This document shows, piece by piece, positions 2,977-6,248 of a stretch of DNA of 64,000 nucleotides (its first letter is position 1; each line of letters begins with the position of its first letter). Origin of the DNA: a plasmid; the NCBI RefSeq assembly GCF_055900595.2, contig NZ_JBVWEU010000002.1; one strand, written 5' to 3'. The notes below the pieces were generated by a model. It was given only the letters and a program-made list of their open reading frames with translations. It did no database searches and had not been told where the DNA came from. Both the position numbers and the translations under genes were made by a program.

Positions 2977-2999
2977 TCCCCGCTGAAGGACGGGGTTTT
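2977..2999 (+). terminator. possible rho-independent terminator
   Basis: hairpin ccccg-ctgaagga-cgggg followed by TTTTA, about 220 bp downstream of the LysR gene. Confidence 0.3.
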
Positions 3000-3173
3000 A
3001 CGGTGCACGGATAAAAGGAGCATGAATGATGGAGTATGTAGAAGTATCGGAGAAAATTTGATATTCTTCTTGATAAAATGAGATTTTCTGCACATATAAG
3101 CATACAGGAGATTCATAGTACAAAAATAAAAAATCATAATAATAAACTTAAATTGACATAACTATAATCAACT

Positions 3174-3581
3174 TTGAACAGGAATATATTAATGATAAAA
3201 CAAAAGGTATTTTTCTCAGGTACTGTACTAGCTATTTTTTTATCTCTCAGCAACGTATCTTTGGCTTCCGGCCTGGATAAAAACATGCAGTCTCTTGCCA
3301 AAAGTATGAGTATTCTACAATCTTCCAATGATAAATCATCACTATTAAATGCTCTTGAAATGATGGATAAATCTGTAGATTCTTCTATGAATATTATTCC
3401 TGAAAAGATAGATGTTAATGATAAAGTTTCTGTAGATAATTATAAGGAAGAGTTAAAAAAACTACAACATGAAATCAATATTGCAAAAAAGAAAGTTGAG
3501 GACGGGAATATAGAATCATTACGTGAGTCTCTGGATAAAATGAACGATATAAAACTTGAAGGTCACCGAAAATTCAGATGA
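3174..3581 (+). CDS. cytochrome b562-family periplasmic protein (CybC-like), divergent
   Basis: 135 aa with signal peptide; alignable to cytochrome b562 including a Met near the mature N-terminus (LDKNMQSL) and a C-terminal His (EGHRKFR) at the expected heme-ligand positions; gene is AT-rich relative to its surroundings. Confidence 0.5.
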   Translation: MNRNILMIKQKVFFSGTVLAIFLSLSNVSLASGLDKNMQSLAKSMSILQSSNDKSSLLNALEMMDKSVDSSMNIIPEKIDVNDKVSVDNYKEELKKLQHEINIAKKKVEDGNIESLRESLDKMNDIKLEGHRKFR

Positions 3582-3832: not shown

Positions 3833-4198
3833 ATGATTGATGTCTTAGGACCGGAGAAACGCAGACGGCGTACTACACAGGAAAAGATCGCTATTGTTCA
3901 GCAGAGTTTTGAACCGGGAATGACGGTCTCCCTTGTAGCCCGGCAACACGGTGTGGCAGCCAGCCAGCTATTTCTCTGGCGCAAGCAATACCAGGAGGGA
4001 AGTCTTACTGCTGTGGCCGCAGGAGAGCAGGTCGTTCCTGCCTCTGAACTTGCTGCTGCCATGAAGCAGATTAAAGAACTCCAGCGCCTGCTCGGCAAAA
4101 AAACGATGGAAAATGAACTCCTTAAAGAAGCCGTTGAATATGGGCGTGCAAAAAAGTGGATAGCGCACGCGCCCTTATTGCCCGGGGATGGGGAGTAA
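3833..4198 (+). CDS. insC: IS2 transposase OrfA (InsC)
   Basis: [40 protein letters not shown] matches IS2 InsC; the annotated ORF starts 15 codons upstream at 3788. Confidence 0.85.
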
Positions 4199-4821
4199 GC
4201 TTAGTCAGCCGTTGTCTCCGGGTGTCGCGTGCGCAGTTGCACGTCATTCTCAGACGAACCGATGACTGGAAAGATGGTCGCCGCAGCCGTCACTCCGATA
4301 ATACGGATGTGCTTCTCCGTATACACCATGTTATCGGAGAGCTGCCCACGTATGGTTATCGTCGGGTATGGGCGCTGCTTCGCAGACAGGCCGAACTTGA
4401 TGGTATGCCTGCGATCAATGCCAAACGTGTTTACCGGATCATGCGCCAGAATGCGCTGTTGCTTGAGCGAAAAACCGCTGTACCGCCATCGAAGCGGGCA
4501 CATACTGGCAAAGTGGCCGTGAAAGAAAGCAATCAACGATGGTGCTCTGACGGGTTCGAGTTCCGCTGTGATAACGGAGAAAAACTGCGAGTCACGTTCG
4601 CGCTGGACTGCTGTGACCGTGAGGCACTGTACTGGGCGGTCACTACGGGCGGCTTCGACAGTGAAACAGTACAGGACGTCATGCCAGGAGCGGTGGAACG
4701 CCGCTTCGGCAACGAGCTTCCGGCGTCTCCAGTAGAGTGGCTGACGGATAATGGTTCATGCTACCGGGCTAATGAAACACGGCAGTTTGCCCGGATGTTG
4801 GGGCTTGAACCGAAGAACACA
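4156..4821 (+). pseudogene. insD: IS2 transposase OrfB (InsD), truncated after about 222 codons
   Basis: [34 protein letters not shown] matches InsD; the frame then continues in-frame into unrelated ABC-transporter sequence. Confidence 0.8.
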
Positions 4822-5292
4822 GAGTTGAGTGCGTCTATCCTGGAGAACGTTGCTGTTGTGCCTCAAAAAGCCGTTCTGGTGCAGGGAACTATTCGTGATA
4901 ATATTCTGTATGGAACCGATGACATTCTTCCCGATGATGAACTGTTTTGCATCCTGAATTCATTAGGGTTAATTAAAGAGGACTGCGGAGAACATTTCCT
5001 TGCTTTCCTAGACCGGGATATTAATCCTCTGGGTAGTGGTTTGAGTGGTGGAGAGATCCAGCGATTATGCATAGCCCGCGCCCTAGCCCGTAAGAAAAAG
5101 ATTATCGTACTTGATGAACCCACGGCCTCTATTGGCGAAGAACTCGCGATAAAGATCATTACCTATATCCGGCAGCATTGCCCTACCGTTATTATTACAA
5201 CTCATAATCCACGAATTCTGGAGCTCGCCGATCATTTTTTTGATGGTATGTCAAAGTCTTGCGTCATTGCTGGAGAAGGCAGAGACCAATAA
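4822..5292 (+). pseudogene. 3' fragment of an ABC-transporter ATP-binding protein gene (exporter type)
   Basis: translation carries ABC signature LSGGEIQR, Walker [11 protein letters not shown] and H-loop TTHN; the 5' two-thirds of the gene is absent (replaced by IS2). Confidence 0.6.
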
Positions 5293-5493
5293 ACCACACA
5301 CGTTAATTCATTTATATCTAATCGGGGTTGTACGCCGGAAACGCCGAAATTTCCGATACAGCGAATTTGTTGATTTTTGAAGCATGTTTGGAAGGTTTTG
5401 ACGTGTACGTTTATGGTGCAGTAAGTGAGAATTTATTCGTACCAGCCATATGATACGTTACGGGCAGTGATTTTTCGCGCTAGACAGCTATTT

Positions 5494-5746
5494 GGGGTTT
5501 GGGGAGTAGTGGAACTCAAAAGGCGGTTAAGCGGTTCAATTGAATGGTCAATAACAGGTAAATCAATCTGTTGAGATCAACAACGTCGTTTGTTCCGCAA
5601 ACGGCCAGGATGAGTAAAGCCAACTTGGCCCCCCCCAAAACAGATAGCCAAGAACGCAGATTCACGATGTAAATTGGCTGGTTGATTTTTGGCTATTTAA
5701 AATGACCGCTTAACGGCGGTTATTGTTCCACTGAGCCTCAAACCCC
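5494..5746. mobile_element. Tn3-family-derived inverted-repeat miniature element (no transposase)
   Basis: 38-bp terminal inverted repeats ggggtttggggagtagtggaac...gttaag (5494-5531) and the reverse complement of ggggtttgaggctcagtggaacaataaccgccgttaag (5709-5746), closely resembling Tn3/gamma-delta 38-bp IRs, flanking about 177 bp of non-coding DNA. Confidence 0.5.
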
Positions 5747-5969
5747 GAAACCTGGATTTTTCCGCGACCAGTAACGGCGTGGGTTGTCACATAAACGACC
5801 GATTGAGTGACTGTCACTGAAACAACGATTTCTGCATCAGATTTCGTCACATAACCCGTCACCTATTCAACGTCATGCAAATCTGTCAATTACTGGCTTT
5901 GGTTACGGAATTTTCTAGGTTTTCGGCTTAGAACCCCAAATAGTCTTAACGTGGTTTATTTTCCGAATT

Positions 5970-6248
5970 TCAAGCGCCCCCCTGGATGAGCGTGATGATT
6001 ACTGGCGGACCTTTGACGTTCCAGCAAATTCCCCTGTTCCACATAGGTTTCCAGATATGACCGGTTATTTTCACGTTCGGTGTACGTGTTACAGCTGCAT
6101 TATCAATATCATCAGGGATAAAATTGTAAGATCGTGGAAAATGTTTATTCATAGCCCGGATGATGGCTGTCTGTGCATCCTTTGTTCGGGCGCGGTGTTT
6201 CCATTCACGCCAGCCATCCACCTCAGAAATAATAACAGTAATCATCAA
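5970..6248 (-). CDS. hypothetical protein
   Basis: 92-aa ORF immediately downstream of and co-oriented with the 233-aa ORF; no family recognised. Confidence 0.35.
   Translation of the reverse strand: MMITVIISEVDGWREWKHRARTKDAQTAIIRAMNKHFPRSYNFIPDDIDNAAVTRTPNVKITGHIWKPMWNRGICWNVKGPPVIITLIQGGA

Follow-up and report, generated by a model that had tools for sequence, protein, structure and literature searches.

The question raised by positions 5494-5746 of an IncF ColV-type virulence plasmid of Escherichia coli, examined here within a window of 64,000 nucleotides, is whether two inverted repeats that enclose no gene are the ends of a mobile unit, from what such a unit would derive and whether it can still move. 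A preliminary description of the locus had placed two 38-bp inverted repeats around 177 bp, and these coordinates are exact. The complete 253-bp element, given the working name TIME-A, occupies 5494-5746 on the plus strand, and the breakpoints of BLAST matches from other plasmids fall at both of its borders. It starts with GGGGTTTGGGGAGTAGTGGAACTCAAAAGGCGGTTAAG, which is the 38-bp left terminal inverted repeat (IRL, 5494-5531, plus strand), and ends with CTTAACGGCGGTTATTGTTCCACTGAGCCTCAAACCCC; the 38-bp right repeat (IRR, 5709-5746, minus strand) reads GGGGTTTGAGGCTCAGTGGAACAATAACCGCCGTTAAG as the reverse complement. The two repeats agree at 28 of 38 positions (binomial P = 4e-10), and a repeat search extends the arms as an imperfect inverted repeat to 64 nt with 70% complementarity. 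The proposal that the ends are of the Tn3/gamma-delta type is borne out by comparison with known termini, as IRR matches the gamma-delta repeat at 30 of 38 positions (the latter confirmed on plasmid F at 10171), matches at 31 of 38 a string that we take to be the Tn3 repeat and that was confirmed as present in published vector sequences only, and is identical at all 38 positions to the res-side repeat of a Tn3-family transposon on the E. coli plasmid pSTEC299_1. IRL agrees with the reconstituted repeat of a Salmonella transposon at 30 of 38 positions by hand count. The small size of the element is the one feature that would favor an inverted repeat that arose by chance or belongs to a common palindromic terminator or operator, but the probability of this reading is negligible given the P value for 28 of 38 matches, the specific similarity to the gamma-delta repeat verified on plasmid F and the spread of the family over several genera.

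The interior contains no gene for transposase or resolvase, in agreement with the preliminary description. No open reading frame lies wholly inside TIME-A, the listed frames of 49-50 aa spanning its borders, and the element codes for no DDE transposase of family NF033527. A tblastn search with the proteins of the parent lineage described below likewise yields no TnpA or TnpR homologue, and hence no cognate transposase, in the 64-kb window. The best conserved stretch of the family is a subterminal core at 5532-5578 (plus strand), which is near-invariant across 11 aligned copies and homologous to the stretch between the inverted repeat and the tnpA stop codon in autonomous relatives (the tnpA-proximal ends at loci L018, L004 and L027). 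A predicted IHF site at 5561-5573 (plus strand; TIME-A positions 68-80) fits the consensus WATCAANNNNTTR perfectly as AATCAATCTGTTG and is one of four such matches in the 64 kb; at the tnpA-proximal end of the Xenorhabdus transposon, a match read by eye also falls at positions 68-80. In gamma-delta, IHF sites adjoin the inverted repeats, and IHF may bind TIME-A at 5561-5573. As RNA, the element is predicted to adopt a very stable fold (-106.5 kcal/mol, z = -8.5), which follows from its inverted ends and is no evidence of an RNA function; an Rfam scan of TIME-A matched no family, and promoter and terminator scans of it gave nothing above background. Length variation among copies includes a run of 8 C in the res-like region (window 5629-5636) that comprises 7-8 C across the family, and a 12-bp tandem duplication (GGTTGATTTTTG twice) in the chromosomal copies (L003, 2501-2764).

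The distribution of TIME-A bears on whether it has ever moved as a unit. With TIME-A alone as the query and a threshold of at least 80% of the element, full-length copies are found in 142 of 5426 complete E. coli genomes (~2.6%) and in 142 PLSDB plasmids from six or more genera, with identities of 76-100% and with 193 of 200 places located on plasmids. Among species-representative genomes there is one further full-length copy, in Erwinia typographi. Copies aligned together with their flanks, including those from 24 metagenome contigs and one Erwinia genome, place the unit in ~16 unrelated contexts in Escherichia, Klebsiella, Enterobacter, Serratia and Erwinia. Perfect 5-bp duplications around full-length TIME-A are kept in only three of these ~16 contexts, namely AACTA on an E. 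coli chromosome, AACGT on an Enterobacter bugandensis plasmid and AAAAC inside the rop gene of a 4.4-kb Klebsiella ColE1-type plasmid. For the rop insertion, taking out TIME-A and one repeat restores the open reading frame, and an empty site exists in which the joined flanks form one uninterrupted 500-bp piece at 97% identity, the occupied plasmids spanning 757 bp. A search for an empty site of the chromosomal copy gave none, all six of the six genomes with that locus being occupied. The comparative evidence thus indicates that the unit has moved as such and is no local accident, and the earlier reading of a miniature non-autonomous Tn3-family element is upheld by Tn3-type repeats in many unrelated contexts, three 5-bp duplications and one empty site. 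TIME-A carries no annotation in the two records inspected, and among the matches listed the only feature beneath it is a "hypothetical protein" in two Klebsiella plasmids.

The source of the element can be traced to a specific transposon lineage. The parent type is a Tn3-family transposon of ~3.9 kb with the order IR-tnpA-tnpR-[~113 bp]-IR, in which tnpA and tnpR are co-directional, and such transposons are identified in Xenorhabdus, Salmonella, Klebsiella and E. coli. The transposon on plasmid II of X. nematophila (L018, 2223-6082) has an end that is 90% identical to the terminal 82 bp of TIME-A; its TnpA scores 948 bits on NF033527 and is 45% identical to that of gamma-delta, and its TnpR is a divergent serine recombinase of 207 aa with an E value of ~1e-7 and 27% identity against gamma-delta resolvase. 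The TnpA clade is small, with 44 plasmids at >=60% identity by tblastn, and its hosts include Salmonella, Klebsiella, Shigella, Serratia, Arsenophonus and E. coli. In E. coli pSTEC299_1 (L026), a copy of the lineage is inserted in the colicin B gene, and the right 143 bp of TIME-A, including IRR, is 97.9% identical to L026 7069-7211, the tnpR-upstream region with its adjoining inverted repeat. Over the same 143 bp, identity to the autonomous transposons of X. nematophila, Salmonella pCFSAN017963_01 (L027) and pSTEC299_1 ranges over 80-98%, and a multiple alignment with these three shows that homology to TIME-A begins 6 nt from the tnpR start codon, so that TIME-A keeps the whole tnpR-upstream intergenic region, where the res site and the tnpR promoter would be expected. 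The left 84 bp is ~65-70% identical to the tnpA-proximal ends of the autonomous transposons, and the left 111 bp as a whole represents a lineage absent from the autonomous copies found. TIME-A therefore differs from the autonomous lineage in having neither tnpA nor tnpR and resembles it in the right 143 bp, more distantly in the left end, and in the position of the IHF match. Among the matches listed, all E. coli copies of the parent tnpA are truncated or interrupted. By these homologies, TIME-A descends by deletion from a Tn3-family lineage that can be identified.

Several observations extend the picture of this lineage. In the Salmonella pCFSAN017963_01 transposon, both terminal repeats are split by group II introns, present as two inverted copies of ~1.93 kb (99.8% identical, at ~934-2868 and ~6706-8642 of L027) that lie at the same position in both repeats, after nt 10 (GGGGTTTGGG|GAGTA). 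The intron seems to home into the Tn3-type repeat of this transposon. The left repeat of TIME-A shares a 15-nt tip with the intron-split repeat. Six loci in Photorhabdus, Citrobacter and Morganella (L019-L024) carry the right ~130 bp alone, comprising the res-like region and inverted repeat, with no nucleotide match to tnpR or tnpA of the lineage or to the left half of TIME-A; these may be other miniature variants or divergent transposons. Some TIME-A copies (L004 2326-2499 on pO104_H21; L010 5725-6005) directly adjoin a Tn3-family tnpA or a recombinase gene, in either case truncated, and this tnpA is 81% identical in amino acids to the parent lineage, so that these copies lie inside relatives of the parent.

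Descent from a full transposon would also be compatible with an in situ remnant, in which a complete transposon at this very locus lost its genes by internal deletion and the 253-bp unit never moved. The 97.9% identity of the right 143 bp to a real transposon end on another E. coli plasmid and the missing target duplication of the window copy would fit such a history. A 253-bp unit with an identical internal junction (position ~111) nevertheless recurs in ~16 unrelated contexts in several genera, and independent deletions would not hit the same breakpoints repeatedly; three of the contexts have 5-bp duplications, one of them with an empty site, and the left 111 bp forms one lineage distinct from the known parents. 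An in situ remnant is thus extremely improbable, and the analysis favors a unit that moved as such.

The interior of the element proves to be more than filler, which refines the preliminary description of 177 bp between the repeats, since its right ~105 bp corresponds to the parental region upstream of tnpR in its entirety, a probable res region. Alignment with the three autonomous transposons assigns this putative res, homologous to their entire tnpR-upstream intergenic region, to 5604-5708 (plus strand; TIME-A positions 111-215), and TAGCCAA/TTGGCTA motifs recur in it six times, the subsites being assigned by eye. The Xenorhabdus transposon has here a 30-bp palindrome, TAGCCAAAATAAGT-AT-AGTTAATTTGGCTA, with arms symmetric at 12 of 14 positions. 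Serine-resolvase crossover sites such as res site I of gamma-delta and Tn3 are built as palindromes centered on AT, and by this analogy the corresponding stretch at 5602-5631 of the window, with 14-bp arms at 5602-5615 and 5618-5631 around a central dinucleotide at 5616-5617, is a candidate res site I. The arms are symmetric at 9 of 14 positions in the window copy and at 5-10 of 14 across miniature copies. The lineage-specific left arm CGGCCAGGATGAGT is common to the whole set of miniature copies, and the right arm follows one of the three autonomous transposons. Because the miniature elements have a degenerate left arm (CGGCCAGG vs TAGCCAAA) and the central dinucleotide differs between copies (AA, AT, AG or GA), present-day res function is uncertain.

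The history of this region is recorded in a left/right mosaic. When each copy is split at position 111, the left parts are 84-99% identical among themselves and form one lineage, and the right parts fall into three groups, near the transposons of pSTEC299_1 (96-98%), Xenorhabdus (92-94%) and Salmonella (88-90%), respectively. The copies of Erwinia and Enterobacter sp., for example, are 97% identical on the left and 80% on the right. The switch point coincides with the center of the 30-bp palindrome, and the ~7 bp shared at the switch is too little for a RecA-type crossover. The mosaic suggests that it is a trace of resolvase exchange between miniature and full-length elements, and the location of the switch at the palindrome center supports past res activity of the TIME-A family. 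Such exchange at res would swap the right flank as well, which would account for the small number of contexts (three of ~16) with target duplications.

The surroundings of TIME-A in the window form a nest of Tn3-type ends, four of which lie within 660 bp. On the left, 5324-5493 (plus strand) is the left 170 bp of a Tn3-type miniature element of ~264 bp, here called MITE-C, and is 99.4% identical to positions 1-170 of an intact copy in NZ_CP032516.1 (L014, 3031-3294) with perfect 32-bp inverted repeats (GGGGTTGTACGCCGGAAACGCCGAAATTTCCG), so that the left junction of TIME-A falls inside MITE-C at its position 170. The right part of MITE-C recurs, at 74-100% identity, in numerous plasmids of E. 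coli, Klebsiella and Serratia, and no name was found for this element. On the right, joined directly to IRR, 5747-5937 (plus strand) is a second Tn3-type miniature element of ~204 bp, MITE-B, without its first 14 bp; it is 87-93% identical to intact copies (L016, 2996-3199; L013, ~2997-3200) with inverted repeats GGGGTTCCAAGCCGGAAACC..., is intact in NZ_CP128591.1 and has a further intact copy at L007 777-972. The MITE-B repeats match those of MITE-C at 26-27 of 36 positions, and a clear 5-bp duplication is absent from all MITE-B copies examined. A lone terminal repeat of the Tn21 subgroup type follows at 5945-5982 (minus strand, tip at 5982; 27 of 36 positions shared with the IRL of TIME244), within a 46-bp segment (5938-5983) that occurs at ~94% identity in hundreds of IncF plasmids and, in L015, beside the colicin B/M genes. 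Upstream of MITE-C, window positions 4816-5292 match, at 99.4% identity, the 3' end of the ABC-transporter gene in a lasso-peptide cluster of L014, and the stretch 3833-5292 is a frameshifted IS3-family transposase in one RefSeq record and labeled in part as an ABC-domain protein in another. In other plasmids, TIME-A, MITE-B and MITE-C co-occur within ~2 kb (L029 4551-4828 and 2809-3063, also L041; L007 777-972 and 2501-2752), and in L029 and L041 positions 53-204 of MITE-B are fused to positions 138-264 of MITE-C; the three elements appear to nest in one another repeatedly.

This composition also explains a partial inverted copy of the left flank that had been taken as a sign of rearrangement. 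The 12-bp match between CTATTTGGGGTT (5488-5499) and AACCCCAAATAG is real, and the second copy lies at 5932-5943, one base from the position first given, but it is not a copy of the left flank: AACCCCAAATAG consists of the right tip of MITE-B (AACCCC) and 6 bp of IncF backbone (AAATAG), and the CTATTT to the left of TIME-A is ordinary MITE-C interior, so that both 6-bp flanks pre-exist at unrelated loci. Their agreement is regarded as a probable coincidence, perhaps helped by the preference of these elements for AT-rich targets. Rearrangement did occur at the locus, but the 12-mer is not its footprint, and an intramolecular inversion marked by it was dropped. The window has no other pieces of MITE-C, MITE-B or the L015 backbone, and for this reason a local inversion cannot be reconstructed.

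The clustering of four Tn3-type ends within 660 bp could alternatively mean that TIME-A belongs, as one arm, to a larger composite (TIME-COMP) or to a larger active transposon across the window, since TIMEs are known to form composites that move the intervening genes (PMC4133298, PMC13367494). TIME-A, MITE-B and MITE-C are, however, each present in a single copy in the 64-kb window, also by a fuzzy search for the inverted repeats, the neighboring elements are truncated and of different repeat types, the outer flanks are reverse complements rather than direct repeats, and the window has no Tn3-family transposase. TIME-A lies in no larger intact transposon, and a composite is highly improbable. 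The single, independent miniature element thus remains the favored reading.

For the window copy itself, the data point to a history distinct from a simple insertion. Its 5-bp flanks are TATTT on the left and GAAAC on the right, so that the direct repeat is absent, as had been reported. The missing duplication, together with neighbors truncated exactly at the ends of a complete TIME-A, points to one deletion event or a later exchange. Synthetic versions of the presumed earlier junctions, namely TIME-A followed by TATTT and the rest of MITE-C on the right, and nt 1-19 of MITE-B followed by TIME-A on the left, found no full-length match in PLSDB. The deletion could have occurred between two TIME-A copies, by resolvase or RecA, or have extended from the right end of TIME-A by transposase-mediated, intramolecular transposition.

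Many IncF plasmids of the ColV/ColBM type from avian and extra-intestinal E. coli, pAPEC-O2-ColV and pAPEC-O2-211A-ColV among them, carry this region at 100% identity, and TIME-A with both junctions is found at 100% conservation in 71 plasmids of PLSDB and in 99 complete genomes of E. coli. As the copy and its flanks are identical in ~70-100 ColV/ColBM-type plasmids, it is most likely an inherited, currently immobile fossil, and because the window has no TnpA or TnpR and the listed E. coli copies of the parent tnpA are broken, the copy is most likely inert. The same conservation could also mean that TIME-A is kept in ColV plasmids for a function in cis, as a multimer-resolution site, an outward promoter or a structured RNA. 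The res-like region, one promoter-like match directed outward through IRR (5674-5703), the very stable RNA fold and the weak promoter activity of Pseudomonas TIME1 (PMC4133298) would all be in line with such a role. Flanking junk such as the truncated MITEs and an IS3 pseudogene is, however, equally conserved, in keeping with plain clonal inheritance; a matching resolvase is absent from the window, promoter-like matches number 2 against 1.1 in shuffled sequences and show no excess, a fold of this stability is what long inverted ends would produce, no Rfam family is matched and the neighbors are pseudogenes and remnants. Retention for a cis function is thus unlikely, and the window copy has probably been passed on with the plasmid backbone as an immobile fossil.

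Taken together, the evidence makes it highly probable that TIME-A is a miniature TIME that arose from a Tn3-family lineage, was mobilized in trans and is now a fossil at this locus. In this scheme, a ~3.9-kb IR-tnpA-tnpR-[~113 bp]-IR transposon would have lost tnpA and tnpR, leaving two pieces: the tnpA-side end, in which the inverted repeat is followed by the subterminal core containing an IHF-type site, and, with the second inverted repeat, the tnpR-upstream region in full. The transposase of a resident autonomous relative would bind the two 38-bp repeats and generate a replicative cointegrate with a 5-bp target duplication, which could be resolved by RecA or by the serine resolvase of the relative acting at the res-like region of TIME-A. 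Such resolvase activity would also let miniature copies exchange the right half and the right flank for those of autonomous transposons or of other copies, and these swaps may account for both the mosaic structure of the family and the frequent loss of target duplications. Mobilization in trans is put forward from the behavior of the family, and a resolvase would bind at the res-like region. Candidate helpers are the intact TnpA proteins of the lineage, for example those of Salmonella pCFSAN017963_01 and of the Klebsiella sp. PL-2018 plasmids. What speaks against the scheme is the low number of contexts with a duplication, the failure to find either presumed earlier junction in PLSDB, the degenerate left arm and variable central dinucleotide of the candidate site I, the broken tnpA copies listed for E. 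coli and the intron-split repeats of the Salmonella transposon.

Among known systems, TIME-A falls within the TIME class, sharing ~38-bp Tn3-related inverted repeats, a size within 50-500 bp and the lack of a transposase; the 5-bp (rarely 6-bp) duplication of the class is seen in three contexts of the family and is missing at the window copy. It apparently represents an unnamed family, as a full-text literature search by inverted-repeat strings and possible names, with ISfinder and TnCentral outside the search, found no description of it. Identity with IS101, TIME244/MITEEc2, IMU or MITESen1, whose sequences were taken from Table S2 of PMC13367494 (Gomi and Yano 2026), was considered and rejected, as blastn at word size 7 gives only 8-14-nt matches and global identity is at the level of shuffled sequences. 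The closest functional analogue is best seen in IS101 of pSC101, a 209-bp TIME with a functional res that is mobilized by the gamma-delta/Tn1000 transposase (Ishizaki and Ohtsubo 1985, summarized in PMC4133298 and PMC13367494). Both elements are gene-less, have 38-bp ends of the Tn3-subgroup type and a res-derived interior, and reside on enterobacterial plasmids, but the interiors are dissimilar, with matches of 8-11 nt at the tips only, and the inverted repeats agree at 22-26 of 38 positions. Their parents also differ, since the tnpA and tnpR genes of gamma-delta lie divergently on either side of res, whereas in the TIME-A parent they are co-directional and the res-like region lies against the inverted repeat; TnpA and TnpR of the two are 45% and 27% identical, respectively.

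The other named elements are more distant. TIME244/MITEEc2 (244 bp, with a putative Tn21-type res and present in ~1% of genomes; PMC13367494) is likewise an enterobacterial plasmid TIME of similar size with a putative res interior, but its repeats belong to the Tn21 subgroup (18-19 of 38 positions shared with TIME-A), there is no sequence similarity, and it is known to bracket resistance genes, whereas no such composite was found for TIME-A. MITESen1 (256 bp), copies of which are often without direct repeats (PMC13367494, Fig. S4 legend), and IMU (288 bp) are enterobacterial TIMEs of about equal length to TIME-A; they resemble it only in the GGGG tips, share 17-21 of 38 repeat positions with it and have no recognized res. 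The class was founded on TIME1-TIME4 of Pseudomonas (262 bp; Szuplewska et al. 2014, PMC4133298), whose 38-bp repeats agree at 29-30 positions, whose duplications measure 5-6 bp and whose RNA folds lie between -70 and -115 kcal/mol (PMC4133298); the corresponding values for TIME-A are 28 of 38 matches, a 5-bp duplication and a fold of -106.5 kcal/mol. Compared by description, TIME1-TIME4 differ from TIME-A in host and in a G+C content of 53-54%, against ~46% by rough estimate for TIME-A, and Pseudomonas is not among the ten named genera of TIME-A blastn matches, five further genera being unlisted.

It is possible, if doubtful, that the res-like region of TIME-A is active now or was so recently, with the resolvase of relatives swapping right-hand modules at 5616-5617 and TIME-A serving as a portable recombination hotspot. 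If so, the swapped module would comprise the res subsites, the inverted repeat and flanking DNA, passing between miniature copies and full transposons; the hotspot would reshuffle segments of virulence plasmids and erase its own target duplications, and the four Tn3-type ends within 660 bp would reflect mutual attraction of the elements rather than chance.

TIMEs are easily overlooked, and they can move or rearrange neighboring genes given a helper transposon; a 2026 survey ties other TIMEs to blaKPC-2, tet(A), qnrS1 and floR (PMC13367494). Its presence in ~2.6% of complete E. coli genomes makes TIME-A at least as common as the four TIMEs of that survey, where the denominator is RefSeq Enterobacteriaceae, and it sits on ColV/ColBM and STEC virulence plasmids. 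Naming TIME-A, MITE-B and MITE-C would improve plasmid annotation and explain seemingly arbitrary breakpoints. Beyond cataloguing, the res-centered mosaic and the nest of Tn3-type ends are suggestive features of these sequences, and the mosaic with its switch at the palindrome center provides a specific instance in which exchange of modules by a resolvase, between a miniature element and the transposons it came from, can be tested.
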